Source: Candidatus Woesebacteria bacterium
Lineage (GTDB): Bacteria; Patescibacteriota; Microgenomatia; UBA1400; UBA1396
Length of the DNA stretch: 64,000 nt
NCBI GenBank assembly: GCA_963749595.1
Contig: CAVVNJ010000010.1
Location: forward strand, 65,223-129,222
Direction of reading: 5' to 3'
Within the stretch, counting starts at the first letter, position 1. Each line of letters begins with the position of its first letter. Below, in pieces: positions 1 to 37,668 of this stretch. The translations under genes and the position numbers were made by a program. Under the pieces are notes generated by a model that was not told the origin of the DNA, made no database searches, and saw only the letters and a list, made by a program, of their open reading frames with translations.

Positions 1-58
1 AAATACCTTGGTTCAACAACATGTTTCTGCTATTAGGGTCAGCCTGTCAACCAGCTAG

Positions 59-143
59 TTTTCCACAAAATGTTAACAAGTTGCCGGTTTTAGTGGATAA
101 CTACCCCAGCCATGGTGGAATAATTGGGATCAACTTTTCCACT
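59..143. promoter_or_regulatory. Cluster of DnaA-box-like 9-mers just upstream of dnaN (possible oriC segment)
   Basis: ttttccaca 59-67, agtggataa 92-100 (rc ttatccact) and ttttccact 135-143. Each has 1-2 mismatches to TTATCCACA. The region reads as non-coding. Confidence 0.35.
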
Positions 144-336
144 TTCACACTATTCCCACCACCCCGCCACCCCGTTTAATCACATTTTGCGGTTTGTCCC
201 CAACCCAATTCACATTTTTTTACACCACCTCGTCGGTTCGGCGCTCACACGAAGCTTTTCCGGACTAGTCGATGGGACAAGCCTCGGTTTTCAACTTATC
301 CTCACGCCTACTACTACTGCTTCTATTAATAACTCT

Positions 337-1467
337 ATGAAGTACACTACGGCCATGAAGTGTCAAATTGACCAAGATTTACTTTTAGATCATCTTCTGG
401 AAGCCCAAAGATTCGTGGCTAGTAAGGGATTCGCTTCAGCCTTACTAGGAGGAATTCAAATTGAGGTTACCACTGATAGTAACTTAGTTATCCGATCAAG
501 TACGGGATCGGTTCTTTATCAAGTCGAGCTATCCTGTCAAAACGCGGATTCGGGATCGGTCGTGATTCCGGCTGGCTTATTGGTATCCAGTGTCAAAACT
601 CTTGGTAGTGGTTTAGTAAATCTGGAAACCGATGGTGATCAGCTGGTGGTTTCTCAGGGTTCGTCGCGTTTTCAAATCGCCGCTTTAACCGGGGAAGACT
701 TCCCTCGCCTAGCTGATGAGGATAAAGCGGAAAAGTTTCTCTTGCCGGTAGAAAATTTCGTCAAGGCCGGTCGGCGGGCCCTGATTGCCGCCAGCGCTGA
801 TGAAACGAAGCCGGTTCTAACCTCGGTCCTGCTGGAGATGCGTCAACCCAACGCTTTAGTGGCGACTGACGGCTTTAGACTATTCCGCGCCGTGACTGAT
901 GTTTCTCTTGATCAGGAGGGGTCTTTATTGCTGCCGGCTAAAGTATTGCGGGACCTACTAGGTATTCTTGAGAAAAGATCGACTAATGTCTTGGAATGTT
1001 ATGCCGACGCGCAGCGATCGAGCGTTTTGTTTAATCTAGGTAATGGTTGGCTAAAAACGGCGACAATCGCCGGTGATTATCCGGCTTACCGCGCGATTAT
1101 TCCGGAAGCTTGCGCCTACTCAATGACAGTCGAGCGAGAGCTGTTGTTGCAAGCCGTCAAACAGGCCATGATTTTCGCCAAAGAGTTTTCCGGCATCGTT
1201 GTTTTGGAGGTAGTTGAGGGTGAGTTGGTGGTTTCTTCGCAAAATAGCACTTCCGGTAAGACTCGATCGCGCCTGGCAGTGATTGGAATTGAGGGCGAGC
1301 CAGTGAAGTTTGCGGTTAATGGGCGCTATTTGCTGGATTTTCTCAGTGTGGTTGAAGGACTGGAAATTAAAATTCAGGGAAATGAATCACTCCGTCCGGT
1401 TCTCTTCACATTGCCGGAGGACGAATCCCTCCTCTATCTGGTGATGCCATTCAAGCTGCAAGAATAA
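337..1467 (+). CDS. dnaN: DNA polymerase III beta subunit (sliding clamp)
   Basis: Taken from ORF 124-1467, whose first 71 codons look non-coding. MKYTTAMKCQIDQDLLLDHL resembles a clamp N-terminus (alternative start 355). The C-terminal YLVMPFKL is clamp-like and the length is about 370 aa. Confidence 0.9.
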   Translation: MKYTTAMKCQIDQDLLLDHLLEAQRFVASKGFASALLGGIQIEVTTDSNLVIRSSTGSVLYQVELSCQNADSGSVVIPAGLLVSSVKTLGSGLVNLETDGDQLVVSQGSSRFQIAALTGEDFPRLADEDKAEKFLLPVENFVKAGRRALIAASADETKPVLTSVLLEMRQPNALVATDGFRLFRAVTDVSLDQEGSLLLPAKVLRDLLGILEKRSTNVLECYADAQRSSVLFNLGNGWLKTATIAGDYPAYRAIIPEACAYSMTVERELLLQAVKQAMIFAKEFSGIVVLEVVEGELVVSSQNSTSGKTRSRLAVIGIEGEPVKFAVNGRYLLDFLSVVEGLEIKIQGNESLRPVLFTLPEDESLLYLVMPFKLQE

Positions 1468-1475
1468 TTATCTTG

Positions 1476-1484
1476 TGATACAAT
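1476..1484 (+). promoter_or_regulatory. Extended -10 box (TGaTACAAT) 9 nt upstream of the rpmH ATG
   Basis: tgatacaat at 1476-1484, ATG at 1494. The same motif and spacing recur at many genes in this window. Confidence 0.4.
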
Positions 1485-1493
1485 TCCACCTCT

Positions 1494-1628
1494 ATGAAGC
1501 GAACTTGGCAACCTAAAAAAGCGAAACGCGCCCGCAAACACGGGTTTTTGCACCGCATGGCTACACGCGCCGGTCAGTTGGTTCTGCAGCGCCGCCGGGC
1601 TCGCGGTCGTCATCGCTTGACCGTTTAA
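1494..1628 (+). CDS. rpmH: 50S ribosomal protein L34
   Basis: Not in the ORF track because it is under 60 aa. It translates to [44 protein letters not shown] and sits in the classical position before rnpA. Confidence 0.95.
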
Positions 1629-1646
1629 GCACGCTACAATAACCCC

Positions 1647-1985
1647 ATGCTCCCCTCTTCCTTGCGTCTCGATCTTCGGGCCTGGCCGGAATTCTTCACC
1701 AATCCAAAGATTAAGAAAACGCCGCATCTGACGTTTTTGTGGCAGGGTAATCCCGTTCAACAATTGCAGGTCGCGGTAGTAGTGAAAAAGACTTTCGGTG
1801 GGGCGGTGGAACGGGTTAAAATCCGCCGCGTTATCCGCTCAGCGATCATTCGCTTATGGAAGACTAATCCCGATCTTTTTCACCCATCAGTGGGGGTGGT
1901 AATTATTCCCCGTCGACCAGTGACTTCACAAGCGGAGTGCGAACGGGAAATTGCATCGGTTTTTACTCAGTGGTTGAGCGCGTGA
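1647..1985 (+). CDS. rnpA: Ribonuclease P protein component
   Basis: 112 aa and basic, with a GGAVERVKIRRVIR motif. It lies between rpmH and yidC. Confidence 0.85.
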   Translation: MLPSSLRLDLRAWPEFFTNPKIKKTPHLTFLWQGNPVQQLQVAVVVKKTFGGAVERVKIRRVIRSAIIRLWKTNPDLFHPSVGVVIIPRRPVTSQAECEREIASVFTQWLSA

Positions 1986-2048
1986 TACAATTCCCCCTGT
2001 GCCAGGGCTCCCCTTCCCGCTCCCAATCCCGCCGGCGCTAGAGGAAAT

Positions 2049-2930
2049 ATGTTGGATTTTATTGTTAAACCCTTAACCGATCTGATTATTTGGTTGTATT
2101 CCCTGACCGGTAGTTTTGGCTTCTCGATTTTGCTTTTGACGGTGATCGTGCGGATTGCCATGATTCCCCTTTCACTTTCCAGTATTCGCATGCAGAAAAA
2201 AATGCGGATAATTCAACCTAAAATTAAAGAGTTAGAGCTAAAGCACGCCGACAGCAAAGATAAAACCCAACTTCGCCTGGCCCAGATGGAGCTTTACCGG
2301 GAGCATAAAATTAATCCATTGGGAGGTTTACTGCCGTCCCTGATTCAATTTGTCCCCATGATCGCGGTCTATCAGGTTCTTCGCCACTTTTTGGCCAATC
2401 AGGATCTAATAACACAAGGAGGGACCTTCTTTTTAGGTTTTGACCTAACTCAACGTGACCCCACTTATATCCTGCCGATTCTAGCGGCGGCTTTTTCTCT
2501 GATTCAAGCCTTAATGATCTTACCGGGCCTGGAGCAGCACGATTTAGTCCCGGAAAACTCGCCGTCGAAAAAAGTTCAAAACGCCAACCAACAGGAAACC
2601 AAAAAACAGGACAGTGCCGCCGCGATGCAAAAACAGATGGTTTTCACAATGCCGATCATGACTGGTCTGTTCGCGATCGGTTTTCCCGCCGGATTGGGGC
2701 TGTACTGGATTGCGACCACTATCTTCGGGATTGGTCAGCAGTATTTTGTTACCGGACTGGGTGGGTTGGAACCATATCTGGCCAAGGTTGGCTTGGTAAA
2801 AAAACACCCCGCACTAGCGTTGGTTTCAACCAATCAGCTGGCGGCAGCGCTTGAGTCGGTTAAAGTCACCAAAATCGATCGAAAAATGAATAAGGCAAAA
2901 CCACGCAAGGCTAAGAAAGGAAAAAAATGA
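2049..2930 (+). CDS. yidC: Membrane protein insertase YidC (short Oxa1-type)
   Basis: GFSILLLTVIVRIAMIPLSL...MQKKMRIIQPKIKEL, several TM segments and a basic C-tail. An agagga RBS lies upstream. Confidence 0.9.
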   Translation: MLDFIVKPLTDLIIWLYSLTGSFGFSILLLTVIVRIAMIPLSLSSIRMQKKMRIIQPKIKELELKHADSKDKTQLRLAQMELYREHKINPLGGLLPSLIQFVPMIAVYQVLRHFLANQDLITQGGTFFLGFDLTQRDPTYILPILAAAFSLIQALMILPGLEQHDLVPENSPSKKVQNANQQETKKQDSAAAMQKQMVFTMPIMTGLFAIGFPAGLGLYWIATTIFGIGQQYFVTGLGGLEPYLAKVGLVKKHPALALVSTNQLAAALESVKVTKIDRKMNKAKPRKAKKGKK

Positions 2931-3400
2931 CCATTCCGGAATACCTGGATCAATTGCTGAATTACCTCGGAGTAGAGGGTGCGGAGGCCAAGGTTGAAGA
3001 GACTGAGGAGTATGTTTTTGTCAACTTGGCGGTTCCGGAAGAAGACGCCGGGAAAATGATCGGCGCTCACGGTGAAAATATTCAGGCCCTGCGACAAATC
3101 ATCTTTCTCAGCTTCACCGAGTATCTGGGTGAGAAAAAGGTTGTGGTTAACGTCAATGATTACAAGGACAAAAAAGAGGAAGCGGCTAGGGAAATTGGCT
3201 ATGAGGCCGCCGAGAGAGCGGTTGACATTCAAGAGCCGCAGCACTTGCCGAGGTATCTATTGGCCCATCAGCGTCGCGCGGTTCATCAGGTGTTGAATGA
3301 ATACAACGGCGTCTTTACCCGCTCCGAGGGCGAGGGGGAGGATCGTCATTTAGTGGTGTATCCTGAAAGTTATCGCGAGCAGTTTGATACCGACGAGTAA
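2927..3400 (+). CDS. jag: Jag-like KH/R3H RNA-binding protein
   Basis: KH-like GKMIGAHGENIQALRQI. The ATGA overlap with the yidC stop is the conserved yidC-jag arrangement. Confidence 0.75.
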   Translation: MTIPEYLDQLLNYLGVEGAEAKVEETEEYVFVNLAVPEEDAGKMIGAHGENIQALRQIIFLSFTEYLGEKKVVVNVNDYKDKKEEAAREIGYEAAERAVDIQEPQHLPRYLLAHQRRAVHQVLNEYNGVFTRSEGEGEDRHLVVYPESYREQFDTDE

Positions 3401-3401
3401 T

Positions 3402-3812
3402 ATGCATCTTTACGTTCATACTGATGGAGGAAGTCGGGGAAACCCGGGCCACGCCGCTTACGGCTTTGTTTTTCTCAATGAAACTGGAGAAGTGATTTAC
3501 GAAAATGGGGCCTATCTTGGCATTGCGACCAATAACGAAGCTGAGTATCACGGACTAATTGCGGCTGTGGAGGCATTGCAAGAGTTTAAGAATGTCCAAG
3601 GGGTTACTTTTCGGTTGGATTCTAATCTGGTGGTGCAACAAGTGCTCGGTAACTGGAAGATCAGGGAGCCTAGGTTACGCGACTTAGTGAATAAAGTTCG
3701 CGACCTGCTACGTCAAGTCGATTTACCCTACGTCATTGAATATGTTCCCCGAGCCCAAAACTGGCAGGCTGATGCCATGGTTAACCAAAAGCTCGATGCC
3801 GAGTTGGGATAG
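3402..3812 (+). CDS. rnhA: Ribonuclease HI family protein
   Basis: MHLYVHTDGGSRGNPGHAAYGFV...NNEAEYHGLIAAVEAL...LDSNLVVQQV. The ATG at 3402 follows the jag stop directly. Confidence 0.8.
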   Translation: MHLYVHTDGGSRGNPGHAAYGFVFLNETGEVIYENGAYLGIATNNEAEYHGLIAAVEALQEFKNVQGVTFRLDSNLVVQQVLGNWKIREPRLRDLVNKVRDLLRQVDLPYVIEYVPRAQNWQADAMVNQKLDAELG

Positions 3813-3862
3813 TATACCGAGAGCTAATCGTTTGGGTCGCCTGATAGAACGTGAAGTCTCAC

Positions 3863-3918
3863 CTCTGGAAGGTCAGACCTTCCTGGCGTAGAAACGCCGA
3901 AGGTCTGACCTTCCAGAG
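3863..3918. repeat. REP-like palindromic element (double copy forming a long hairpin); likely terminator after rnhA
   Basis: ctctggaaggtcagaccttc at 3863-3882 is the exact reverse complement of 3899-3918. An inner ggcgt/acgcc hairpin is present. The core recurs at 17855, 24932, 49205, 56527 and 59813. Confidence 0.8.
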
Positions 3919-3980
3919 AACTCCACCAAGACCCTCAATAGGCCCTGGCGGGTTGGCGGCCGGATCTTTACACTTAGGGG

Positions 3981-5555
3981 GTGCATCAGAAGTTTGTAGT
4001 CCAAGTGGAACCTGAAGAGGAGTGGATAGCTGTCCCAATCGAGGTCAGCGAACCATCTCCTGTGGTGGTTAAGCCTGAGCCCTTGGTCCAACCACGCCCA
4101 AGACAACATATCAGGGTTGATATCGAACAGGTGGAGCGAGAACAGCGCCAAAGGGTGCAAGAGCTTTTGCGCGAGGATGTACTAAAAAAGACTCACGAGT
4201 CAGTGGTGATTAATAAACCACGTGGGGTCGGAGTCCCACCTCAGTCTATTGCCACGGCACAGGAAGACGCTTTTCGCCGTATCCAGCTGCCAAATCTCGA
4301 GAGGATTGAGCGTCTTTATCAACCTCAATCAACCAAATCAAAGCGGAGTAAGCCGACTACTTTCTGGCAGGGAATCAGAAATAAGGCAACAAGAATAATA
4401 GGCAGGGCAGGGAGGGGTAAGAACTTTCTTTGGAGCTTAGGCTTAGGAGTGGTTGTACTTCTAGTCATCAGCGTCGGGTTTTTTTGGCTGGTCAAAACCG
4501 ATGTCCAGGCAGCAGAAAAAGAGGCGCGCTCGCTGGTAGAAGACATTCAGCAGAGTCGGATTTCTTCAGCCAGGGAACGGGTGGCCGATTTACAACGCAA
4601 ACGCTCGCGCTATGTTTGGCTATTTAATCGGGTACAGCCGATCTTTGTTCTTGCTCAGGGGCGTTCCAAGGCGCTCCACATTGCACAACTGTTGGAAGTT
4701 TCCGATTCTGGATTACACCTCGCTGAGGTGGGGTTGGATAGCTACGCGGTACTAGATCAAGGCTATCGGCAATTTTTAAGCCAGGAAGATGGTAAGAGCA
4801 CCGAGACCTTTACTAAAGTGTCTGGAAAACTTGAGGTCTTATTCACCGAACTATCTTCATTGCAGGCCAAGCTTCAGCGCTTGAATAATCCCTATCATCT
4901 GGCGGCGATCGACGAGTTTAAAAATGAATTGAATGACCGGATGCCTCACCTGCGCAAGTATTTCCTTTCCGCCAAGCAGCTAACCTATGTTTTGCCGGAG
5001 ATTCTGGGGGAGAACGGCCACAAGAAGCAGTATCTAATTTTGTTACAAAATAATGCCGAGTTGCGACCCACTGGAGGATTCATTGGCTCGTTTGCGCTTT
5101 TGACGGTGGAGAATGGCAAGTTTCTGGACTTCAGGGTGGAAGACGTTTACGAAGCCGACGGCCAGTTGAATGGTTTTGTGGCGCCACCGGAGGAAATTAC
5201 CCAATATCTCGGGGAGGCGCAGTGGTTTTTGCGCGATGTAAACTGGAGCCCGGATTTCCCCACCGTGGCGCAACAAGCTGGTTGGTTTTTGGATAAGGAG
5301 CTCAAAATCAAGCCGGACGGGGTGATTGGAATTAATTTATCGGTAGTGAAAAAAATGCTGGAAGTTTCCGGACCAATCCGCCTTGTCGATTACGATGAGG
5401 TGATTACCAAAGACAATCTTTATGAGCGGGCCCAGCAGCACGCGGAGCTCAATTTTTTCCCGGATCAACCCAAAAACGCGATTTTCTCAGCGCGGTGGCC
5501 AGCGCCTTGTTTGAGAAGCTTTTCCGCGAGGACACCAATACCTTGTTGGTCATGA
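3981..5555 (+). CDS. Membrane-anchored DUF4012-like protein, N-terminal part (frame broken near 5453-5461)
   Basis: TM segment FLWSLGLGVVVLLVISVGFFWLV, then LILLQNNAELRPTGGFIGSFALL. The tail after ..AELNFF reads as out-of-frame sequence. Confidence 0.7.
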   Translation: MHQKFVVQVEPEEEWIAVPIEVSEPSPVVVKPEPLVQPRPRQHIRVDIEQVEREQRQRVQELLREDVLKKTHESVVINKPRGVGVPPQSIATAQEDAFRRIQLPNLERIERLYQPQSTKSKRSKPTTFWQGIRNKATRIIGRAGRGKNFLWSLGLGVVVLLVISVGFFWLVKTDVQAAEKEARSLVEDIQQSRISSARERVADLQRKRSRYVWLFNRVQPIFVLAQGRSKALHIAQLLEVSDSGLHLAEVGLDSYAVLDQGYRQFLSQEDGKSTETFTKVSGKLEVLFTELSSLQAKLQRLNNPYHLAAIDEFKNELNDRMPHLRKYFLSAKQLTYVLPEILGENGHKKQYLILLQNNAELRPTGGFIGSFALLTVENGKFLDFRVEDVYEADGQLNGFVAPPEEITQYLGEAQWFLRDVNWSPDFPTVAQQAGWFLDKELKIKPDGVIGINLSVVKKMLEVSGPIRLVDYDEVITKDNLYERAQQHAELNFFPDQPKNAIFSARWPAPCLRSFSARTPIPCWS

Positions 5556-6256
5556 AATCATTGTTGCAGTCGGCTGATGAGGCTGAGCTACTGGTTTATC
5601 TGGATAATCAGCAAGCCAATGAGGCTTTGACCAACCTGGGTTGGGATGGCTCCCTGCGCACCCCAGATTGTCCCAATCCATTTCCGGCTCAGTCCTGTTT
5701 TGTGGACACCATCATGCAGGTTGAAGCCAATGTTGGTGTGAACAAAGCTAATCAATTTATTAAGCGTCAAATTAAACAGACGGCAACGTTAAGGGGACAG
5801 CAGGTGCTGCACGAACGAACCATCGTGTTGCAGAACACCGCTGACTCCAATGCTTGGCCTGAGGGCGCGTACAAAGACTATTTTCGGCTGTTTGTAACCC
5901 AGGGTTCGCAACTATCCGCTCTGACCATAAATTCGGCGCCAGTCGACTTACGCGGGGTCAAAGTGAGCGCTGAAAAAAACAAAACCGTTTTTGGATTTTT
6001 GGTTAACGTTCCCATTAAAAGCACCGCGACGATTCAGATTTCCTATAACACGCCGGTGCCCGACGCCTCACCCCTGGTTTACGCCTTGTTTGAGCAAAAG
6101 CAGGCTGGTGCCGGTTTTGACCCCATTGAAACCAAGATTGTGATTGAAGATCGAAAAGTTTTAACCGTGGCGCCGGAGCCGAAAATCGATGGCCGGACCC
6201 TGGAGTTTGACGGCGATCGGCGCACTCACCAATATTACGCCGTTGAAGTTCGTTAG
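5495..6256 (+). CDS. DUF4012-like protein, C-terminal part (continues 3981-5555 in the -1 frame)
   Basis: This frame is open from 5426 and reads ..FFPGSTQKRDFLSAVASALFEKLF across the T6C3 run. Confidence 0.7.
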   Translation: MASALFEKLFREDTNTLLVMKSLLQSADEAELLVYLDNQQANEALTNLGWDGSLRTPDCPNPFPAQSCFVDTIMQVEANVGVNKANQFIKRQIKQTATLRGQQVLHERTIVLQNTADSNAWPEGAYKDYFRLFVTQGSQLSALTINSAPVDLRGVKVSAEKNKTVFGFLVNVPIKSTATIQISYNTPVPDASPLVYALFEQKQAGAGFDPIETKIVIEDRKVLTVAPEPKIDGRTLEFDGDRRTHQYYAVEVR

Positions 6257-7920
6257 GAATTGGGCCAGGGTTCAGTAATTAACATCGACTTAGTGGGCTG
6301 AAGATTTTGCCAAACCGCCTCGGTAACAAACGGCATGAAGGGGTGGAGTAGCCGCAAACAGGTTAGGTAGACATTTTTTACCACGGCTAAATAGACTTCC
6401 CGATCGGTCCGATTCTTGTTTTCCTCAAGATAACGATTGGCAAATTCATTCCAAATAAAGTCGTATAGACCCAAGGCGGCGTCACTGAAATGATAGTGTT
6501 CCAGATGTTGAGTGGTTGTTTTTACTAGAGTCGATAACTGATTTAATATTTCTTGATCAACCAAGTTGGTGGAGGATGCATTCTCTGGAAAAGTTTCCCC
6601 CAATTCTTGCTCCTGAAGTTGAATAAACCGCCCAATATTCCAGATTTTGTTGCCAAAGTTACGGTAGCCCTTGACCTTGGGCTCACTCAAAGCGATGGGA
6701 TTTCCCGGTGCTGAGCCGGCAACTAGGGCGATTCGCAAAGCGTCGGCACCATACTTGGCGATAATTTCCAAGGGATTAACCACATTGCCTTTAGATTTGC
6801 TCATTTTGGCGCCCTTGGCGTCGGTGACCATGGAGTGGAGATAGACGGTTTTGAACGGCGCGACACCTTCAGGGTGGGCGCTGTCGTTAGTCAGATATTT
6901 CCCCAACATAATCATCCGGGCAATCCAGAAGAAAAGAATATCCCACATCGAGTCCAGAACAGCCGTGGGGTAGAAACGCTTGAAGTCTGGTCCGTCTGGA
7001 TAACCCAATACTGCTAGTGGCCATTGACCGGAACTAAACCAGGTGTCAAAAGTATCGGTGGATTGAACATATTCTTCACCCGGGGGGGTAATGGAAACCA
7101 CATAGTTGGCAGAAGAGGTGATTACGCTTTGCAACCCGGCGCGGATTTCATCAAGAGTAACTCCGGCGAGTAGTGCTTGGTCAATGCTCTCCGAGCGCCG
7201 CTCTCCCTCGTGGTTGATATAGGTGACCTGAATCGATCCCCCGGTTCCAGTTGAAGTGTTATACCAGACCGGCATCCGGATTCCCCAGACGATCTGACGG
7301 GAAATTGGCCAGTCGCGAATGTTGCTTAACCATTGTTCATATTGTTTGGTAAAGCGTTGGGGAATGACTTTTACTTCGCTGGTGCGCACTGCTTGCAGGC
7401 CCAACTCGGCCAATCCCTCCATCCGGACAAACCAGTTGGGGTAGGGCAAGGGCTCAATGGGGTGATTACCCTTATAGCAGACCGCAACTTGATTGGTGTA
7501 ATTTTGGTCAATTTTTTCGACCAAGTTTTCGGCTTGAAGTAGGCCGACAACCGCTTGACGCGCATTAGTGGTTCCTAATCCTTGGAATTGTTCGCGCAAC
7601 ATTTCAGCTCTGGTTTTGTCCGGCTCGTTGGGCGGTTGCAACCAGTCTAGGTCGATTTTGCCAAAAGTATTAATAGTCGAGTATATCGGCAAATTATGCT
7701 GTTTTCCGATTTTAAAATCATTAATATCATGTGCTGGGGTGACTTTAAGCAAGCCGGTGCCAAATTCCGGATCAACGTAGTCGTCGGCAATAATTGGGAT
7801 CGGTTGGCGGGTTAGCGGATTGAGGACGTAATCTCCCTGGAGCGAAGTTGTGCGTGGATCATTGGGGTTAATCGCCACCGCCACATCGGCAAAAATCGTT
7901 TCCGGCCGAACGGTAGCCAC
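6253..7920 (-). CDS. valS: Valyl-tRNA synthetase, C-terminal fragment (frame open up to about 8025)
   Basis: VATVRPETIFADVAVAINP, EFGTGLLKVTPAHD and KMSKSKGNVV. The upstream in-frame sequence HEERQSPLYYLRYHFADGE continues the N-terminal fragment. Confidence 0.9.
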   Translation of the reverse strand: MATVRPETIFADVAVAINPNDPRTTSLQGDYVLNPLTRQPIPIIADDYVDPEFGTGLLKVTPAHDINDFKIGKQHNLPIYSTINTFGKIDLDWLQPPNEPDKTRAEMLREQFQGLGTTNARQAVVGLLQAENLVEKIDQNYTNQVAVCYKGNHPIEPLPYPNWFVRMEGLAELGLQAVRTSEVKVIPQRFTKQYEQWLSNIRDWPISRQIVWGIRMPVWYNTSTGTGGSIQVTYINHEGERRSESIDQALLAGVTLDEIRAGLQSVITSSANYVVSITPPGEEYVQSTDTFDTWFSSGQWPLAVLGYPDGPDFKRFYPTAVLDSMWDILFFWIARMIMLGKYLTNDSAHPEGVAPFKTVYLHSMVTDAKGAKMSKSKGNVVNPLEIIAKYGADALRIALVAGSAPGNPIALSEPKVKGYRNFGNKIWNIGRFIQLQEQELGETFPENASSTNLVDQEILNQLSTLVKTTTQHLEHYHFSDAALGLYDFIWNEFANRYLEENKNRTDREVYLAVVKNVYLTCLRLLHPFMPFVTEAVWQNLQPTKSMLITEPWPNS

Positions 7921-8011
7921 GACCAGGTAGGGAACTTCTTGGCCGTTGATAATTCGCGGTTCGCCGTCGGCAAAGTGATAGCGGAGATAATAAAGCGGCG
8001 ACTGACGCTCC

Positions 8012-8590
8012 TCATGGAAGCACTTCTAGATCGGCAAAAGTGGTGCCACACTTAGGGCAGTAGTTAACGATGTAATTATCCCGATAAATCAAGCCATCTT
8101 TTTCTAGTTTCTGAAAGGTGTCAAAAACCAGGTGCAGCACTTTTTCGTCCAGGGTGAAGGTTCGGCGGTCCCAGTCGGCAGAAAAACCCAGGGCTTTCAT
8201 TTGGTCGACAATTAGGCCGGAATTTTGTTTGACGAAGGAAAAAATATCGCGATAGAGGGTTTCGCGATCAAATTGAAAGCGGGATTGACCCTTTTTCTTC
8301 AGCTCTTTTTCGTAAACAAATTGGGTTTCAAAACCGGCGTGATCGGTACCAGGAAACCAGACGGTGGGGTGACCCTGCATGCGTTTCCAGCGGATTAAGA
8401 TGTCTTGAATGACGTACATGGCATGGCCGGCGTGGAGTGAGGCGTTGGCGTTGGGTGGGGGCATGAGAATGGAGAAAGGCTCTAAATCAGATTCGTTAGG
8501 CTTAAAGGCGCCGGATTCTTCCCAGCGGCGATAAATCTGCGCCTCGTACTCCTGATGTTGGTAGGTGGTGGGAAAAACGGCCATGAGCAT
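8012..8590 (-). CDS. valS: Valyl-tRNA synthetase, N-terminal fragment
   Basis: PPPNANASLHAGHA (HIGH-type motif), WFPGTDHAGF and CPKCGTTFADLEV. It ends at a premature tga at 8012-8014. Confidence 0.9.
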   Translation of the reverse strand: MLMAVFPTTYQHQEYEAQIYRRWEESGAFKPNESDLEPFSILMPPPNANASLHAGHAMYVIQDILIRWKRMQGHPTVWFPGTDHAGFETQFVYEKELKKKGQSRFQFDRETLYRDIFSFVKQNSGLIVDQMKALGFSADWDRRTFTLDEKVLHLVFDTFQKLEKDGLIYRDNYIVNYCPKCGTTFADLEVLP

Positions 8591-8727
8591 TGATTATATC
8601 AAGGAATCATTCCTGGGTGGGATTACCGCAAGATTCCGGCAGTATTCCGGCGCAACCTATCAAACTAGATCAGTCCGGATTTTCTTCGTCTTGTCTGGAG
8701 AGCTGGCGCGCGCTAGGGTAGGTTGTC

Positions 8728-9315
8728 ATGAAACAAGTGATTCTCGACGTTGAGACTAAAAAAACCTTTGAAGAGGTGGGTGGCTATTTACCCCAACAGC
8801 TGGGAGTGAGTTTTGTGGGCGTTTGTTTGCGGGACGGCTTCACCGGCGCGGGCGAATTCAGAGGATTTTTTGAAAAAGATCTGCCGCAACTTTGGCCGAT
8901 TTTGGAAACCGCCGATGTCTTAATCGGTTTCAACATTGAGGGTTTTGATCTGGAAACTTTGCGACCCTACTACTCGGGAAATCTGGACAAGTGGGGGGTG
9001 TTGGATTTGATGTTGCGTTTTAAAGACGCCGCCGGACACCGGATTAGCTTGGATTCTATTGCTCAGGAAACTTTAGGAGTTGGTAAGAGCGGGAACGGGT
9101 TGGATGCGATTCGCTACTACCGCACTGGTCAATTGCGGGACTTGGCAAAATATTGTCTCAAGGACGTGGAAATTACGAGGGATGTTTATGATTTTGGCCG
9201 GACTCAGGGCAAGGTCAAGTACACCAATAAGTGGAACCGAAAAATTGAAATTCCAATCGACTTTTCTTTTACGCCCAGTCAATCTGATGGAATCCAAATG
9301 ACTCTTCTGGGTTAA
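8728..9315 (+). CDS. RNase H-fold 3'-5' exonuclease-like protein
   Basis: VILDVETKKT...LIGFNIEGFDL...YCLKDVEITRDVY resembles DEDD / PolB-exonuclease-like proteins. Confidence 0.6.
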   Translation: MKQVILDVETKKTFEEVGGYLPQQLGVSFVGVCLRDGFTGAGEFRGFFEKDLPQLWPILETADVLIGFNIEGFDLETLRPYYSGNLDKWGVLDLMLRFKDAAGHRISLDSIAQETLGVGKSGNGLDAIRYYRTGQLRDLAKYCLKDVEITRDVYDFGRTQGKVKYTNKWNRKIEIPIDFSFTPSQSDGIQMTLLG

Positions 9316-9330
9316 GTCGCCGGTGGTACA

Positions 9331-9534
9331 ATGGACGTCATGTCGCCAACTCTTTTCGACTCGGAGATGGTGAAGAATCAGCAGAAGACGATTGAGTTGG
9401 AAGCGGAGTTGAACCAGTTGAAGAGCGGAATTAAAACACGAGCCCGACCAAGAAAACCACCATGCCCAAAGAGCGGAAATAGCGACAGCACACCACCTGG
9501 AAAAACGGCCAGGCCGACACCCCAACGAATATAG
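9331..9534 (+). CDS. Hypothetical small protein (uncertain; lies in an indel-rich stretch)
   Basis: ORF only. There is a coiled-coil-like N-terminus followed by a low-complexity basic/proline tail that may be out of frame. Confidence 0.25.
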   Translation: MDVMSPTLFDSEMVKNQQKTIELEAELNQLKSGIKTRARPRKPPCPKSGNSDSTPPGKTARPTPQRI

Positions 9535-9567
9535 CTCCGTGTTACGTGTCCTGCTTCTCCTGGTGGT

Positions 9568-9858
9568 TTGATGTCAGCATTCTGGGCTCTGCCCAAGGGC
9601 GTTGGTTTTGAGTCCCAGCACGAGAAAGAGCAGATCCTGATGGTGTTGCGGCAGCATCCGGTGGTTAATCTTAAGTGGATGGCGACCGTGGTGGCTCTGC
9701 TGTTGGGTCCGGTTCTGGTCAGTCCGTTGTTTCCGTTCTTCAGCTTCTTGCCGGAGCGGTTCTTTCTTCTTCCTCAACCTGGGTTGGCTGATGTTAATTT
9801 TGGCCTATGTGATCGAAAGTATCTTGAGTTGGTACTACAATCTTTATATCATTACTGA
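9568..9858 (+). CDS. bPH (YdbT-like) membrane protein, N-terminal fragment
   Basis: The TM helix WMATVVALLLGPVLVSPLF is followed by a frame break in the ttc/ctt-rich run at 9761-9775. Confidence 0.5.
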   Translation: MMSAFWALPKGVGFESQHEKEQILMVLRQHPVVNLKWMATVVALLLGPVLVSPLFPFFSFLPERFFLLPQPGLADVNFGLCDRKYLELVLQSLYHY

Positions 9859-10123
9859 TGAGCGATTGATTGACGTCGACTTTTATTCTCTGATTTACAA
9901 ATCGGTTTCCGAGGCCAAGCTCGACAAGATCGAGGACGTGACCGCCACGACGGCCGGGGTTTTCGGGGCCATGTTCGATTTCGGTACCATTAGCGTTCAG
10001 ACCGCCGCCGAAAAAAGGGAGTTTGAGCTGGGTAGCGTGCCGCATCCGGCCAAGGTGACGAAGTTTTTGAACGAATTGATTTTGGAAGAGGAACGCGAGC
10101 GGAACGAGGGACGGGTAAGCTAG
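9791..10123 (+). CDS. bPH (YdbT-like) membrane protein, C-terminal fragment
   Basis: WYYNLYIITDERLIDVDF...ISVQTAAEKREFELGSVPHPAKV. The frame is open upstream through FFFLNLGWLMLIL. Confidence 0.6.
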   Translation: MLILAYVIESILSWYYNLYIITDERLIDVDFYSLIYKSVSEAKLDKIEDVTATTAGVFGAMFDFGTISVQTAAEKREFELGSVPHPAKVTKFLNELILEEERERNEGRVS

Positions 10124-10130
10124 GAGCAAT

Positions 10131-10410
10131 ATGTTACAGTTTGTCGGCCGGAACTATTCCTCAATTTACCCTCGTTTCCGGACGGCAGGTGCTGTGAGGG
10201 CGGCCTAAAGCTATTGTTCCTGGGATTTTTTCTGCTCTATCTGATTTTCGCCCTGATGGTAATCGACAAGTTAAGCTGATGACGCACACCATTACCGCCC
10301 CAGCGACGGCTTTTTAGCCGCCGCCAGTTGGCTGTATTTGGTTTTGCCGGCCTGGTGTTGTTTTCGCGCTCTTCACTCTGTAGCGCTTTTATTGCTATCA
10401 TGAGCCAAAG
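10131..10410 (+). pseudogene. Small two-TM membrane protein readable only across several frames
   Basis: MLQFVGRNYSS, LKLLFLGFFLLYLIFALMVI, RQVKLMTHTITAPATAF and RRQLAVFGFAGLVLF lie in different frames. Confidence 0.3.
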
Positions 10411-10435
10411 ATGAGCGCGCAAACCGCCTCGCTTA

Positions 10436-10666
10436 GTGGGTATACCTTCCAAGACGACTTGGTCGACGACGGCCTCGGTAAAGTTAGAGAGGGGCGAGTT
10501 GTACTTAGCCGCCTCGTTTTTCGGGGGGGAACAGTCGCCACATGACGGACGGCGTTTAGTTAAGTTGTTGGAGAGCTTAGACCGGCCGGATAGTCGCTCA
10601 CTATACTTGGCGATCGAAAATTTTCTGCCCGCCTCAGTGGCGAAACTGCCGCGTCGATCGCTTTGA
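10436..10666 (+). CDS. Hypothetical fragment, possibly the N-terminus of the 10688 gene
   Basis: ORF only. An alternative frame reads ..DRFDFKDGISA directly before the MTLFSYGFSLAVLVRG start. Confidence 0.35.
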   Translation: MGIPSKTTWSTTASVKLERGELYLAASFFGGEQSPHDGRRLVKLLESLDRPDSRSLYLAIENFLPASVAKLPRRSL

Positions 10667-10687
10667 TTTTAAAGATGGGATCAGCGC

Positions 10688-12268
10688 ATGACCTTGTTTA
10701 GCTATGGGTTCAGTTTGGCGGTATTGGTCCGGGGAGAAGGCGGGCGGTGGCTCGCGGAGGGCGATCAGGAGAGAGTGGTATTAGAGGGGGAAATTCGGCC
10801 TGGGGATTTGTTCTTACTCGCCACCGCCCGCGCCAAAGAGTTGGGTCTAAAGCTTGACTCACTAATTGGTCGGCCGGCGGACGACGTCAGTTTGTTATTT
10901 TCCCGCATTCAAACCCACCCGCACTCCGGGGAAATTGCCGTTCTGGCGGTACAATTTGCGCCGCCGGCCGAAGAAACCAGGGCGGCAGCGACTTTGTCCA
11001 TTCAGGAGTCAAAACCGGACAGTGAAATCATTCCCGAAAATATCAGTCGACCGATGATCGCTCCCCGTCATCTAATTGCCCCGGAGAAAATCGAGCAGGG
11101 TATTTTGGCCTCAGAAGAAGAAAAAGCCAGTCGGATTAAACGCACAATAGTGAAGAAGGAGTTATTTTCTGGCTTGGCTCAATCACTGCGCCACCGCAAG
11201 AATCTGTTGTGGTTGGCGGCGGGAATCGGTTTGATTTTTCTTCTGATTTTAGCCATGGTGATTTACCGGGGCGCCGCTTTAGAAAAAGAGCGGAAAGACG
11301 TGGTGGTGCCGTTGGAACAATTGGTGTCAACCTCGCTTGCATTACCACCGGAGAAGATTGGTGAACAGCGGGCGGCGGTACAGTCTTTGCTGGAACGCCT
11401 GCGGGCAACTCGGGTTACTTACGGCTCCAATCAGAGGCGGGTACGCGAGCTGTTAACGTTGATCGAAGAGAAAAACGGGACCATTTCCGGCGAAAAACAA
11501 CTGGTCAATCTCCCAATCTTTTATGATTTTCGTCTGATTAGCGCGGAATTTTTGGCCAGCAAGGCGGCTCGGGAAAAAAACCAAAGCGTCTTTGTGGATG
11601 GCGGCAGCGGGGTAATTTTGTCGCTTAATCTTGATACCAAACAAAATGAAACCTACCCTCGCGAGGGAATTGCTGGCCCGCTCGACATTGCTTTAACAGG
11701 GAACACGGCTTACATTTTGCAGTCCGGGAAAATTATGAAAGCGGCGGCGTCTCAGACTAAGGCCGATGAGGTTGCGGCCCTGGGAGCGGTGCGGGAGCCT
11801 CTACTGCTTGATCGGTTTGGCGAGACACTCTATATTTTTGACCGCTCCGGGCAACAAATTTGGCGACTACCCCTGGTTGAAGACGCCACACCCTCAGGTT
11901 GGATTAAGTCCGCGCGCGGCGTTGATTTTTCCGCCGTCACTTCGTTGGCCATCAATGGCTCGATTTGGTTGGGCAGCAGCGACGGTAATATTTATGAATT
12001 TGTCCGCGGGGAGCGTCAATCGTTTAGCGTCTCAGGCTTAGTCGAGCCGTTTACTTCTTCCCTTTATCTGGCGGTGACGGAAGAGGGTGAGCGGTTAGCT
12101 GTGGTGGAGCCAGCCAAAAAACGCTTAGTGCTGTTAAACAAGCAGGGAGAATATCAACAACAAGTCGAGTCGGAACAAATCGGAGCGGTAACTGACGTTT
12201 TTCTGGCTGAGGATGAGAAAAGCGCCTACCTGGTTGCTGGCAGTGTGGTGTATAAAGTTGACCTTTAG
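10688..12268 (+). CDS. Hypothetical membrane protein with a repeat-rich (propeller-like) C-terminal region
   Basis: 526-aa ORF with a central TM segment LLWLAAGIGLIFLLILAMVIY. No catalytic motif was recognised. Confidence 0.7.
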   Translation: MTLFSYGFSLAVLVRGEGGRWLAEGDQERVVLEGEIRPGDLFLLATARAKELGLKLDSLIGRPADDVSLLFSRIQTHPHSGEIAVLAVQFAPPAEETRAAATLSIQESKPDSEIIPENISRPMIAPRHLIAPEKIEQGILASEEEKASRIKRTIVKKELFSGLAQSLRHRKNLLWLAAGIGLIFLLILAMVIYRGAALEKERKDVVVPLEQLVSTSLALPPEKIGEQRAAVQSLLERLRATRVTYGSNQRRVRELLTLIEEKNGTISGEKQLVNLPIFYDFRLISAEFLASKAAREKNQSVFVDGGSGVILSLNLDTKQNETYPREGIAGPLDIALTGNTAYILQSGKIMKAAASQTKADEVAALGAVREPLLLDRFGETLYIFDRSGQQIWRLPLVEDATPSGWIKSARGVDFSAVTSLAINGSIWLGSSDGNIYEFVRGERQSFSVSGLVEPFTSSLYLAVTEEGERLAVVEPAKKRLVLLNKQGEYQQQVESEQIGAVTDVFLAEDEKSAYLVAGSVVYKVDL

Positions 12269-12322
12269 CCGATCTTGCTTTCACTGCCGATGGAACATAA
12301 ACTGTCTTGTTGGAATTAGAAA

Positions 12323-12772
12323 ATGAGGAATGAAGCTATGACGCTTGCCCAGCAGAGCATTTTTTCGATTGCTCCGGCCAACCGGCTTGATCCGGAGGAG
12401 CAGGGTGAAATTGTCCAGTCGGTTCAGGATTGGTTGTTGGGTCTGGTCCTGCCGGATCGGGAGGTAGCGACTCACCTTGGCGACGATGGCGTTGCTCTGG
12501 GAAGCAAGTTGCAAAGGTTACAGCTGGACTCTACTTCGGAAGAGGAAAAAGAGTTGCTGCGGGACGATATTTTTTCCCGATTGAGTCGTGTGCCGAATAT
12601 TGAGGCGATTCTTCATCGTTATGCGGATGAGTTTAAAGTTGATTTCTTGGGCGAACGGATTTCATTGGAGCGGGAATTGGCTGGTTTCGATCTAGAACGC
12701 TTGGGGCAAATTGATCAGGCTTATGAGGCTTTTAACCATGGTGATTACGCGCTCGTTCTCGAGCTCCTTTGA
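12323..12772 (+). CDS. Hypothetical acidic protein
   Basis: 149-aa ORF followed by a long nested hairpin. Confidence 0.6.
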   Translation: MRNEAMTLAQQSIFSIAPANRLDPEEQGEIVQSVQDWLLGLVLPDREVATHLGDDGVALGSKLQRLQLDSTSEEEKELLRDDIFSRLSRVPNIEAILHRYADEFKVDFLGERISLERELAGFDLERLGQIDQAYEAFNHGDYALVLELL

Positions 12773-12783
12773 GACGTTGAGAT

Positions 12784-12871
12784 GAGGAATCATTCCTACC
12801 TCACCCTACGCCTGGAGGAATCAATCCAGATTGATTCCTCTAGAGGTGAGCCTCGGTAGGAATGATTCCTC
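12784..12871. repeat. Nested palindromic element / bidirectional terminator between convergent genes
   Basis: gaggaatcattcctacc at 12784-12800 is the reverse complement of 12855-12871. The inner stem pairs 12815-12825 with 12830-12840. The core aggaatcattcct also occurs at 8602-8614. Confidence 0.7.
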
Positions 12872-12875
12872 TTAT

Positions 12876-15266
12876 TTATTCCCGCCAAAAATGGAAGCCC
12901 TCGGCCAGCTCGAAGATGCGTTCGGCGGTGACGAAGTACTTTTCCTCGACCGGTTTTTTGATCGGATTGTTATCTTTGTCGAGAGCGTCGACCATCATCC
13001 GAACGCAATCCAAGCAATAATCTCGAGTGAAGGGGTCGGTGAGGAGGGTGTGTTCCTCGAACTTGAGTTGATCGGTGGGGTCGTCCGGGCGGGTAGGAAG
13101 GCCGGTTTGACCAACAATCCAAGTTCCGCGCCAAACATTTTCCCGAGCTTGGGGTTCAGTGCCACGCCAAAAAATTTCGGAGGTTTGTTCACATTGATGA
13201 TCGCCTGGGGTGGCATCATTGGGTAGGTCACCGGAGCGCTTGCAAAAACTTGCTTTGGCGATCGTGGGCGGCGCCTCGCGCCAAACGGCATCGGTTTGAT
13301 CGCGCAGCAAGAAAGTCATGATGTCATTCCAGATTGGCGCCGCCCCCGTCACGCCTGAGACCAGGTTCTGGTTCATAGCCGTGTTGTCGTTGTTTCCGAC
13401 CCAAACCGCCGTTAAATATTCCGGAGTAAAGCCCATTGTCCAGTTGTCGCGCAGGTCGTTGGTGGTTCCGGTTTTGGCCGCCACTTTGCGTCCGCGAATA
13501 TAAAGTTCCGAGTTGGTGCCAAAAGCGTTGGCCCGGGCATTGTTGTCGGAAATAATATCATTGGTCAAATAGGCCACCTCTCGATCCAGAACGCGGTAAA
13601 TTTCATCTGGGTCGGTGGAGATTTTCAAATCAGGAATCGCTCGCTCGTTGGCTGGCGAGTTGGGTGCCACGGCCTGTAATTGCTCGACGGATTGCGCCCT
13701 CGCCTCCGGATCGGCTTCAAATAGTACTTTTCCCCGGAAAGTCTCGATTTTCAAAATGGAAATTAAGGGAACCTTGACGCCGTTATTAGCCAAGACTCCG
13801 AAAGCAGTGGCCATCTCGGTCATGGGTATTTCTCCCGCACCAAGGGCCAGTGAAAGTCCAAAACGTTGCGGCTGGTCCTTGAGCGTGGTGATTCCCATGG
13901 CTGACGCGGTGGCAATAAAATTATCCAAACCATTCAGACCCAAGGTTTTTACCGCCGGCAGGTTGTAGGAGTTGGCCAGGCCGGTGCGCAGGGTAACCGG
14001 GCCGTGGTAATTGCCATCATAGTTTTGCGGACAATAGGCCTTCTGACCTAAGTTTTCAAAACAGGTTGGTATATCAAGCAAAATAGTATTCATGCTGACG
14101 CGGCGCAACTGCAAAGCCGTAGCGACATCAAGGGGCTTAATCGACGATCCGGGTTGGCGGGGACGCAGCGTCATGTTGATTTGACCCTCGTGGGTGGCGT
14201 CAAAATAATCTCGCGAGCCGACCATGGCCAAAATTTCCCCGGTCTTAGGCCGGGTGACCAATGCCGCGCCATTGCCCACTTTAAGCCGCGACAAGGTATT
14301 AATTTCGGCTGATAGCGAAGCCTGCACCGTATCTTGCAAGCTAAGGTCCAAAGTGGTGGTAACCCGCAATCCACCGCGCTCAACCAAGGCATGCCCGTAT
14401 TGTTCGACTAGTTGATCCCGCACGGAAAAGACAAAATGTGGCGCCCGGATAGAAAACTTTTTTTCGGCAAAATGAAGCGGGGTTTGGAAAGTCTGATCGG
14501 CTTGTTCGCGGGTGATATAGCCATCCTCAGTCATTCGCCGCAGCACTTCCTTTTGCCGTTCTTTGCCGAGTTCAGGAGTATTGCCAAAAGGCGAGTAGCG
14601 GGTTGGAGACTGAGGTAAACCGCCGAGATAAGCCGCCTCCGCCAGTGATAATTCCCGCGCCGGTTTGCCAAAAAAGGTTTGCGCCGCCGCCTCAATTCCC
14701 CAGGCAGTGCCACCATAGGGAATGTGATTCAAATACATTTCTAAAATTTGGTCTTTGCTGTATAACACCTCGGTGACGATGGTGAGAATGGCTTCTTTGA
14801 ATTTTCGTTCGATCGTGCGTTCGCGGGAGAGGAGGGAAACTTTGACCAATTGCTGAGTCAAAGTCGATCCTCCCTGTAGTTGTTGTTTGAACAGAGTGTT
14901 AAGACCCGCCCGAAAAATACCGACGAAGTCGAGCCCAAAGTGGCGATAAAAATTCTTATCCTCGATGGCGATGCTGGCTTGGGACACATAGGGTGGCAGC
15001 TCGGACAGCTTGACCGGCGTGCGGTTTTCATCCGCGAATATTTCGTATAACAATTCGCCGTTGCGATCAAAGATTTTGGTGCTCACCGCCAAGTCTTCCG
15101 AGGAGCGCAGTCGGGCTGGTGATGGTAAATCGCGCAAGAAAAAAATGACGGTTAATATTAGAACCGCCACGGCAGCAAGAGCCAGGGCCAACAGGATTTG
15201 GACCGGACGTTTTAACTTCCGGTATCTGGAGGCGGTCTTTTTTAAACGGGAGAGCGAAAACTTCAC
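12876..15266 (-). CDS. Class A penicillin-binding protein (transglycosylase + transpeptidase)
   Basis: N-terminal TM segment. GT51 motifs IAIEDKNFYRH and GGSTLTQQLVK, plus transpeptidase motifs SSIKP and KTGTT. Confidence 0.9.
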   Translation of the reverse strand: MKFSLSRLKKTASRYRKLKRPVQILLALALAAVAVLILTVIFFLRDLPSPARLRSSEDLAVSTKIFDRNGELLYEIFADENRTPVKLSELPPYVSQASIAIEDKNFYRHFGLDFVGIFRAGLNTLFKQQLQGGSTLTQQLVKVSLLSRERTIERKFKEAILTIVTEVLYSKDQILEMYLNHIPYGGTAWGIEAAAQTFFGKPARELSLAEAAYLGGLPQSPTRYSPFGNTPELGKERQKEVLRRMTEDGYITREQADQTFQTPLHFAEKKFSIRAPHFVFSVRDQLVEQYGHALVERGGLRVTTTLDLSLQDTVQASLSAEINTLSRLKVGNGAALVTRPKTGEILAMVGSRDYFDATHEGQINMTLRPRQPGSSIKPLDVATALQLRRVSMNTILLDIPTCFENLGQKAYCPQNYDGNYHGPVTLRTGLANSYNLPAVKTLGLNGLDNFIATASAMGITTLKDQPQRFGLSLALGAGEIPMTEMATAFGVLANNGVKVPLISILKIETFRGKVLFEADPEARAQSVEQLQAVAPNSPANERAIPDLKISTDPDEIYRVLDREVAYLTNDIISDNNARANAFGTNSELYIRGRKVAAKTGTTNDLRDNWTMGFTPEYLTAVWVGNNDNTAMNQNLVSGVTGAAPIWNDIMTFLLRDQTDAVWREAPPTIAKASFCKRSGDLPNDATPGDHQCEQTSEIFWRGTEPQARENVWRGTWIVGQTGLPTRPDDPTDQLKFEEHTLLTDPFTRDYCLDCVRMMVDALDKDNNPIKKPVEEKYFVTAERIFELAEGFHFWRE

Positions 15267-15288
15267 ACCATGATTATACTGGGTTGGT

Positions 15289-15810
15289 ATGCCACATTCA
15301 CATCTTTCGCCGCGATCAGAATTATTCCAGACTCAGGTGCCTCCCTCGGTGCGGGCTTTTTTGCCATCAGAACTGGCCGAATTGGTGGACGACAGTCTCC
15401 AGCTCCATCAGGTGGTTCAATCGATCGAGGCAACCCAATTTAATGATTATTCCTTTGTCGTTTTCCCTCTGGCTAAGGTTTATGAAGGTTTTTTAAAATT
15501 ATTATTCTTTCAATTGGGGTTGGTAAAAAAAGAGGTTTATTATGCACGGCACTTTCGGATCGGCCGGAGTTTTAATCCCGATTTGGTGCCGCGTTTGCGG
15601 GATGAGTCTTGGTTGTATGATGATGTGGCTCGTTTGTGTGGCGAGGGGTTGGCGCGGGAATTATGGGAAGTTTGGTTGGCCGGCCGCAATCACTTGTTCC
15701 ACTTTTTTCCTGGTGATCGTTATTTGTTAAATCGAAATGAATCCGGCCAACTGATCAACCGTTTGTTGGCGGCAATGGAGTCGGCTTTGGCTTGCCGGCC
15801 CAGGGTATAA
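15289..15810 (+). CDS. Hypothetical protein with a HEPN-like Rx4H motif
   Basis: 173 aa. RNHLFH is encoded at 15685-15702. A tatact box at 15275-15280 lies 8 nt before the ATG. Confidence 0.6.
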   Translation: MPHSHLSPRSELFQTQVPPSVRAFLPSELAELVDDSLQLHQVVQSIEATQFNDYSFVVFPLAKVYEGFLKLLFFQLGLVKKEVYYARHFRIGRSFNPDLVPRLRDESWLYDDVARLCGEGLARELWEVWLAGRNHLFHFFPGDRYLLNRNESGQLINRLLAAMESALACRPRV

Positions 15811-15864
15811 ATGTTACAATCAACCACATTACGGCCTGATATAGCCGGATATTAGGGGGCGAGC

Positions 15865-16521: not shown

Positions 16522-16681
16522 TAAGCACGCGGATCATGTTTCGCAAAAATCGCGACGGCTAAATCACGTTCAGTCCCTGGGTGAGGGCGTGGGAAGAACT
16601 TTTCACACCACCCGCGATCATTTAACGCCATTTCGTTATCAAGAAGCGTTCCGCTCCTTGTACTCCTTTTTCTTTTTGGAG

Positions 16682-17856: not shown

Positions 17857-17901
17857 GGTTTGACCTTCCAGGCGTGAGGGTGCTGTGGGGTCTTACCCTC
17901 A
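17855..17901. repeat. REP-like element copy
   Basis: aaggtttgaccttccaggcgtgagggt followed by the hairpin tgagggt...accctca. Confidence 0.7.
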
Positions 17902-37662: not shown

Positions 37663-37668
37663 TCAAGA

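Follow-up and report, generated by a model that had tools for sequence, protein, structure and literature searches.

A dispersed family of palindromic doublets resembling REP/REPIN repeats in an uncultured bacterial lineage

The closest described systems are the REP/REPIN-RAYT systems of E. coli and Pseudomonas (Nunvar 2010; Bertels & Rainey 2011; PMC3116915, PMC5581495), in which short, mostly extragenic palindromes form doublets that can be folded into one hairpin and persist vertically at orthologous sites. The bracketing of RAYT genes by palindromes is known for these systems as the REPtron arrangement, and is the arrangement of the palindrome-bracketed Y1 genes described below (PMC3733652, PMC5581495). 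For REPs, dimers and hybrid dimers are documented, as are in-frame copies within genes, REP ends that provide a stop codon and, in Thauera GTAG-1, stems of 5 bp (PMC3733652). The GTAG- and CGTC-tagged REP super-families in particular form HH, TT and HT dimers with conserved spacers (Di Nocera et al. 2013, PMC3733652), in a survey whose phyla do not include the lineage studied here.

The stretch of DNA analysed in this study (64 kb in total, hereafter the window) carries six elements, A to F, of a family that shares with the REP/REPIN-RAYT systems its short, mostly extragenic palindromes, its doublets, of which some fold into one hairpin, and the vertical persistence at orthologous sites. In a related genome, MAG GCA_964511175.1, Y1/HUH genes are also bracketed by repeats and have no adjacent IS genes. 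The family differs in its much smaller hairpins (5-bp stem, 3-nt loop) at a fixed spacing of 31–32 nt, and in its tag, which is an 11-nt conserved stretch on the 3' side of the hairpin and not a GTAG directly adjoining the stem at its 5' side. Furthermore, the MAG possesses two RAYT-like genes (158–159 aa) which score below the curated RAYT cutoff, and the host belongs to an uncultured lineage, with RAYT-like relatives labelled as Patescibacteria and none encoded in the 64-kb window. Agreement with the tagged super-families extends to dimers with conserved spacers, hybrid dimers of two hairpin classes (here element F, and positions 3595–3650 of MAG contig L006), stop-supplying ends, intragenic in-frame copies, and a GTAG in approximately one third of the linkers and before the 3' core of the Y1b gene. 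In contrast to those super-families, the tag here reads CCAGGCGT(R)AG, often as GTGAG or GTAAG, and stands 7–8 nt from the next stem. Because dimers, hybrid dimers, 5-bp stems, intragenic copies and supplied stop codons are all documented, the repeats appear to be of the known REP/REPIN-RAYT kind, and are best read as a compact REP/REPIN-like family with already documented REP features in a poorly studied, uncultured lineage.

MITEs derive from DDE-type IS, and PATEs are ORF-less IS200/IS605 derivatives which retain only the left-end and right-end hairpins. IS200/IS605 ends and PATEs are comparable to the present family in that no target duplication is made and in that sub-terminal hairpins are recognised in single-stranded form by a Y1 HUH enzyme, as is proposed here. 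They differ in that no parent IS bearing TnpA/TnpB was seen here, in the window or in the neighbourhood of the Y1 genes of MAG contig L010, and in that the two hairpins, instead of forming a distinct left end and right end, belong to one family. Rickettsia palindromic elements (RPE) and in-frame intragenic REPs offer a parallel to element E, an in-frame insertion of 45 nt which adds 15 residues and leaves the ORF open. However, there is no sequence relation to RPE, the family is much shorter than RPE-1, and both element D and a copy on MAG contig L003 are length-neutral, unlike the RPE pattern.

Detection and architecture of the repeat family

An earlier note on this DNA had proposed a dispersed, REP-like palindrome family with at least seven copies. 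Each of the seven coordinates listed holds the sequence as described when window positions are checked, hence the sites are real, but the number of loci is six and not seven, because 24932–24956 and 24969–24982 make up one element. The family itself was borne out by its enrichment and its uniform architecture. The motif GGTCAGACC has eight matches in the window against 0.37 ± 0.54 expected, and eight were reached in no shuffle. For the 17-mer core GGAAGGTCAGACCTTCC, allowing up to three mismatches, 13 window matches compare with 0.11 expected, and xxGGT-NNN-ACCxx 13-mers with paired outer bases occur 15 times compared with 2.2 in shuffles, 12 of the 15 falling within the six elements. A chance origin of the repeats was ruled out by the shuffles. 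The reading as a CRISPR or tandem array was rejected since no locus has more than two or three units, and GGTCAGACC at 48628 was discarded as a further copy, being an isolated chance match of 4 bits with the covariance model. Rfam scans of the window (gathering cutoffs and E ≤ 1) returned only two tRNAs and one spurious miRNA-hairpin match on element A. Overall, the density of the repeats is 12 hairpins in six elements per 64 kb. When sub-family 2 (below) is counted, six of eight elements lie outside maximal ORFs, i.e. in ~14% of the window, and the intragenic elements are D and E.

Every locus is composed of a 13-nt hairpin, an 18–19-nt linker and a second 13-nt hairpin, giving an element of ~45–60 nt in which the starts of the two hairpins are 31–32 nt apart, and this layout is uniform in 12 copies from three genomes. 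The hairpin has a 5-bp stem (RRGGT/ACCYY) and a 3-nt loop. The start of the linker is conserved as CCAGGCGTRAG, with the tag CCAGGCGT[AG][AG]G sitting 3' of hairpin 1 and 7–8 nt before hairpin 2. GTAG is read in five of 15 linkers, the remainder having GTGAG, GTAAG or GTGG; an unpaired GTAG abutting the stem was not found in the doublets, and GTAG-A-stem occurs only at the 3' flank of Y1b. Linkers of assignable orientation read in the same direction as the upstream gene or the gene that contains them. Two degenerate second hairpins, those of the elements at 17855 (GGGGTCTTACCCT) and 59813 (AAGATCTGATCTT), had been missed in the earlier reading.

The stems covary. In the 12 aligned copies, pairing holds in 100% of cells for one 5-bp stem and in 98% for the other, and compensatory changes include AU to GC and the reverse at pair 2, UA to CG at pair 5, and GC to AU in the GATC-type hairpin. 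In the long-range alternative, hairpin 1 can pair with hairpin 2 in 87% of cells, the loop positions doing so in no more than roughly half of the copies. A covariance model of the 12 copies scored the six elements at 52–63 bits, followed by 12777–12847 (−) at 23 bits, and all other matches were below 11 bits. In the following descriptions the bit scores are given together with E-values from a second model, built from copies of the related MAG only.

Element A (3863–3918, + strand; 62.3 bits, E 1e-6) reads CTCTGG-AAGGTCAGACCTT-CCTGGCGTAGAAACGCCG-AAGGTCTGACCTT-CCAGAG, and an inverted-repeat search recovered the perfect 20-nt arms that had been reported for it. It is intergenic, 51 nt past the stop of an RNase H-like gene (3812) and 62 nt ahead of a DUF4012 gene. 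Element B (17855–17899, +; 52.5 bits, E 1.7e-6) reads AAGGTTTGACCTT-CCAGGCGTGAGGGTGCTGT-GGGGTCTTACCCT; its first hairpin overlaps the upstream TAA stop (17854–17856), and TGTATACT and the ATG of a VIT1 gene follow. Element C (24932–24981, +; 61.5 bits, E 1e-7), CCCTGG-AAGGTCAAACCTT-CCAGGGGTAAGTTTGAAC-AAGGTCAGACCTT, starts 6 nt after the GAPDH stop (24923–24925) and has TGTATACT and an ATG (25010) downstream. Folding confirmed the perfect 11-bp stem described at 24932–24956. Both A and C are intergenic inside same-strand gene runs. Element D (49199–49254, −; 56.2 bits, E 1e-4) lies within codons 26–45 of Lgt (AEKVRPSRGKTSEGLTLLAW) and has three GGT-NNN-ACC hairpins, at 49236–49248, 49220–49232 and 49205–49217, with a 3' linker, CCTGGCGTGG, that encodes the conserved LAW of Lgt. 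Element E (56525–56579, +; 63.1 bits, E 8e-12), AGGGTCAGACCCT-CCAGGCGTGAGGGTACCCC-AGGGTCAGACCCT, is a direct and not an inverted doublet, located in the 3' end of a nifU-like ORF, directly before the GGAGG/GTG start of an NTPase gene. Element F (59813–59856, +; 56.5 bits, E 1.4e-8), AAGGTTAAACCTT-CCAGGCGTGAGAATGGGC-AAGATCTGATCTT, is a hybrid dimer with a GATC-type second hairpin, and takes up precisely the 40 nt between two convergent genes, both of whose stop codons overlap the element ends: a TAA (59812–59814) overlaps the first hairpin, and the LysRS stop (59855–59857, minus strand) overlaps the second. The stop-codon contacts pointed out previously for A, B, C and F were all found at these positions.

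The box TGTATACT occurs only twice in the window (17902–17909 and 24994–25001), just after B and C and 6–8 nt before an ATG, and a similarly placed TGGTATACT is present at 46685–46693, 8 nt before the ATG at 46702. These boxes look like extended −10 boxes of leaderless genes.

A longer related element, at 12784–12871 (−) and referred to as sub-family 2, is an 88-nt near-perfect hairpin between convergent genes, with cores GGAATCATTCC and GGAATCAATC/GATTGATTCC and with the linker TCCAGGCGTAGGGTGAGG that it has in common with the six-element family. Its RNA fold has an energy of −54.4 kcal/mol (z −7.4). The element was outside the training set of the 12-copy model, which matched it at 23 bits (E 1.7e-5); with the relative-only model the match (12777–12847) had an E-value of 0.004. 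A probable singleton of sub-family 2 is present in a divergent intergenic region at 8603–8625 (+) as AAGGAATCATTCC-TGGGTGGG (AAGGAATCATTCCTGGGTGGG), a weak case consisting of one hairpin and a linker-like tail.

Copies and empty sites in related genomes

Homologues of Lgt led to three syntenic contigs: L010, from MAG GCA_964511175.1 (Lgt 57% identical), L047 (57%) and L009 (72%). The MAG is syntenic with the window over 47.5–61 kb, and contains repeats with the same architecture and linker, with cores GAGGGTGTMACCCTC and doublet loops GGGTGTMACCC. These copies are homologous to those of the window. A covariance model made from five MAG copies and no others recovered exactly the six window elements, in their assigned orientation and with E-values of 8e-12 to 1e-4, plus 12777–12847, which supports the homology independently. 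In L052, a more distant relative, two AAGGTTTGACCTT cores form an inverted pair that lacks the linker, and neither AAGGTTTGACCTT cores nor elements were found in L051.

A pattern scan of genome contigs with GGTNNNACCYTCCAGGCGTRAG gave eight matches, of which two were real, in contigs L003 and L006 of the same MAG. Three others (the 22-mer GGTCAGACCYTCCAGGCGTGAG; L002 257–278, L004 819–840 and L005 6517–6538) were rejected because in high-GC genomes this 22-mer also arises when sequence coding for SRLEGLT is read as its reverse complement, which can mislead pattern scans; the remaining matches were singletons. Doublet scans of viral and metagenome contigs with GGTCAGACC...GGTCTGACC detected no relative of the family, only unrelated high-GC hairpins (GGGGTCAGACCCC...). 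Hairpin doublets of the form GGGGTCAGACCCC...GGGGTCTGACCCC were observed in many unrelated high-GC contigs (L011–L046), with several per contig in L013, L026 and L043, and probably represent other REP-like families having the GGTCAGACC core in common.

As judged by comparison of the contigs, both E and F are insertions relative to empty orthologous sites. Element E corresponds to 45 extra in-frame nucleotides at the nifU/NTPase junction compared with L010 and L047; the extra sequence is precisely the hairpin-linker-hairpin, and adds the 15 residues RVRPSRREGTPGSDP with the ORF remaining open. No target duplication was visible at the E insertion against the empty sites of L010 and L047. The LysRS and cell-surface-protein genes, between which F lies in the window, are only 1 nt apart in L010. 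Both ends of contig L047 fall within an element, as is expected of a multicopy repeat that breaks assemblies. Its 3' copy comes immediately after tRNA-Tyr, and L010 likewise has a copy in that place.

Candidate enzymes and alternative explanations

No Y1 transposase was detected in the 64-kb window by tblastn or a six-frame profile HMM, in line with the earlier observation that the window encodes no RAYT-like enzyme, and no RAYT remnant was found at the two window positions syntenic with the Y1a and Y1b genes of L010. None of the 120 RAYT-like homologues listed is on the 176,697-nt source contig, and among the matches listed from a Y1b homologue search and a profile search, no orthologue was assignable to the source genome. 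The data agree with the suggestion that a cognate RAYT-like enzyme is encoded outside the window, in that MAG GCA_964511175.1 has the family together with two PF01797 genes, one of them repeat-flanked. The two proteins, Y1a and Y1b of contig L010 (158 and 159 aa), have NF047646 (REP-associated tyrosine transposase) as their best NCBIfam family, ahead of IS200, although their scores of 48 and 41 bits stay below its cutoff of 80. Both keep the HUH motif (PNHxHLL) and the catalytic Tyr (of YKA). On either side of Y1b lie inverted 55-nt flanks of GGGTCAGACC cores, four upstream and three at the 3' end, where the flank reads GTAG-A-GGGTCAGACC; a further GGGTCAGACC cluster is found at L006 7028–7092. 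Y1a is bracketed by TTGAGATCSAATCTCAA, and the same GATC-type palindrome is the second hairpin of F and of the element at L006 3595.

Genes for further members of this RAYT-like clade, on L048 and L049, each have palindromes of their own at their flanks. At least 7,996 database proteins fall into this very large clade, those with names being from Patescibacteria. The RAYT-like ORF of L048, a Beckwithbacteria MAG, has two in-frame copies of its flanking palindrome CCTACAAGGAGACTCCTTGTAGG (10149–10175 and 10457–10483). No IS, TnpB or DDE transposase was found in the window or adjoining the L010 Y1 genes. The Y1b-flanking clusters differ from the dispersed doublets in layout (17–18-nt spacing), in lacking the CCAGGCGT linker and in their loops, hence the link between enzyme and repeat is circumstantial, and it comes from another genome, the MAG.

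We consider it rather likely that the lineage has a REP-type repeat of its own, with the six elements as its REPIN-like doublets, mobilised now or formerly by a RAYT-like HUH enzyme. The unit would be the 13-nt mini-hairpin with its CCAGGCGTRAG tag, two hairpins making one element, and where the pair is inverted the element could alternatively fold as a single long hairpin. Such elements would be non-autonomous, and the likeliest mobiliser would be a single-strand DNA transposase of RAYT-like HUH/Y1 type whose gene lies elsewhere in the genome; this enzyme would recognise the folded hairpin and adjacent tag on single-stranded DNA. The source genome presumably contains a RAYT of this type, which may act on these hairpins; if the REP/RAYT reading is true, a RAYT-like gene without adjacent IS genes and bracketed by RRGGTCAGACCYY hairpins should be present there. 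The family and, indirectly, the large RAYT-like Y1 clade (at least ~8,000 proteins) are additions to the lineages where such systems are little described, and the covariance model is ready for use in annotating the repeats. This annotation matters because the repeats lengthen ORFs and provide stop codons, and because assemblies are broken and gene callers misled by them.

Several observations would also suit a structural or regulatory motif selected by the host, either a binding site for a dimeric protein or an RNA stabiliser or processing signal kept at gene boundaries: the persistence of copies at orthologous sites (in Lgt of the window and L009, and 3' of tRNA-Tyr in L010 and L047), the stem covariation, the linkers in the sense of the upstream gene where orientation is assignable, the length-neutral copies in coding sequence, and the placement of B and C immediately upstream of TGTATACT boxes. 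Orthologous persistence does not discriminate, however, since REPINs themselves are known to persist at orthologous sites, and the regulatory context is inconsistent because copies lie between convergent genes (F and 12784–12871), inside ORFs (D and E) and in one divergent intergenic region. With E and F missing at the orthologous junctions of relatives, the assembly of L047 broken by repeats at both contig ends, and the same core bracketing a RAYT-like gene, we regard a host-selected motif as unlikely. It is highly improbable that the elements are intrinsic terminators or 3'-end stabilisers of mRNA with repeated origins at gene ends. Four of the six copies do touch or closely follow a stop codon, and A (−47.7 kcal/mol, z −9.5) and D (−40.2 kcal/mol, z −6.5), which fold as long hairpins, as well as C (z −3.9) and E (z −3.6), fold far better than shuffles; B and F, however, fold no better than shuffled sequence (z −1.3 and −0.4), and D and E are within ORFs. 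A terminator scan of positions 1–20000 called none of the three elements there (A, B and 12784–12871) terminator-like. Use as intrinsic terminators, as put forward in the earlier note, is therefore not upheld: a T run follows none of the six elements, so they are not canonical terminators. The near-identical sequences, the fixed spacing of 31–32 nt and the conserved non-stem linker would furthermore be unexpected of hairpins that evolved independently. Elements inside same-strand gene runs would be transcribed as stable RNA hairpins, and may influence transcripts in this form, rather than as Rho-independent terminators.

Derivation by deletion from an IS, with movement by the transposase of that IS (as a MITE or PATE), overlaps mechanistically with the REP/RAYT explanation. 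Two hairpins with a short linker resemble the minimal left-end/right-end pair of IS200/IS605, the associated enzymes are PF01797 proteins, and E has no direct target duplication, as in Y1 transposition. We nevertheless judge this origin very unlikely, as neither the window nor the surroundings of the L010 Y1 genes hold an IS, TnpB or DDE transposase, and those Y1 genes are single and palindrome-bracketed (REPtron-like), not within an IS. The target-site duplications and long terminal inverted repeats typical of DDE MITEs are also missing; E has no direct duplication and the window no IS that would mark a DDE-type MITE.

Length-neutral copies and other features of the window

Under the preferred REP/RAYT explanation, the copies in Lgt and in a TagA-like gene are not explained by simple insertion. 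With element D, the Lgt loop is longer by only about 2 residues compared with >20 orthologues, i.e. the copy is length-neutral, and L009 has an element at the same Lgt codons, in which one stem pair, the same in both hairpins, is C:G instead of T:A. On contig L003, a hairpin and linker encode ASRLEGVTL in the TagA-like gene, with no insertion relative to a solved TagA. In both genes a conserved coding motif coincides with the linker (LAW in Lgt, ASR in the TagA-like gene). Insertion followed by deletion, or homology-seeded conversion, could be the source of such copies. A further reading, which we hold to be quite unlikely, is that copies can overwrite existing sequence rather than insert into it, where a coding motif matches the CCAGGCGTG linker (LAW, ASRL) and adjacent variable codons are replaced by hairpins; in Lgt, both hairpins would then have later altered the same stem base pair in concert. 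Overwriting, if true, would mean that REP-like repeats take part in homology-seeded gene conversion or templated repair, or that selection for the fold in essential genes is strong. To our knowledge, spread by overwriting has no description for REPINs, and the intragenic copies that leave length unchanged pose a minor but real question about how such repeats spread.

Several other features were observed in the window. Between 51900 and 56600, nifS (54.9–56.2 kb), nifU (56172–56589) and an MFS transporter gene (51.9–53.1 kb) are split across frames relative to their L010 orthologues, and these frameshifts are either pseudogenes or assembly indel errors. A ~4-kb block of low GC (0.405) at 35600–39650, carrying an NTP-transferase gene and a DUF218 gene, is located between tRNA-Tyr (39652–39735, minus) and the orthologue of L010 p455. 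This block may be an island inserted at tRNA-Tyr, because in L010 the tRNA-Tyr runs straight into a repeat element and then p455. GC-rich inverted repeats of CGCG type, unrelated to the repeat family, are present at 53458–53540, 34236–34279 and 48472–48592, two of them with perfect arms of 14–17 nt. Finally, a Gp49 (HigB-like) and HTH_XRE gene pair at 44125–44720, beside tRNA-Trp, is probably a toxin-antitoxin module.
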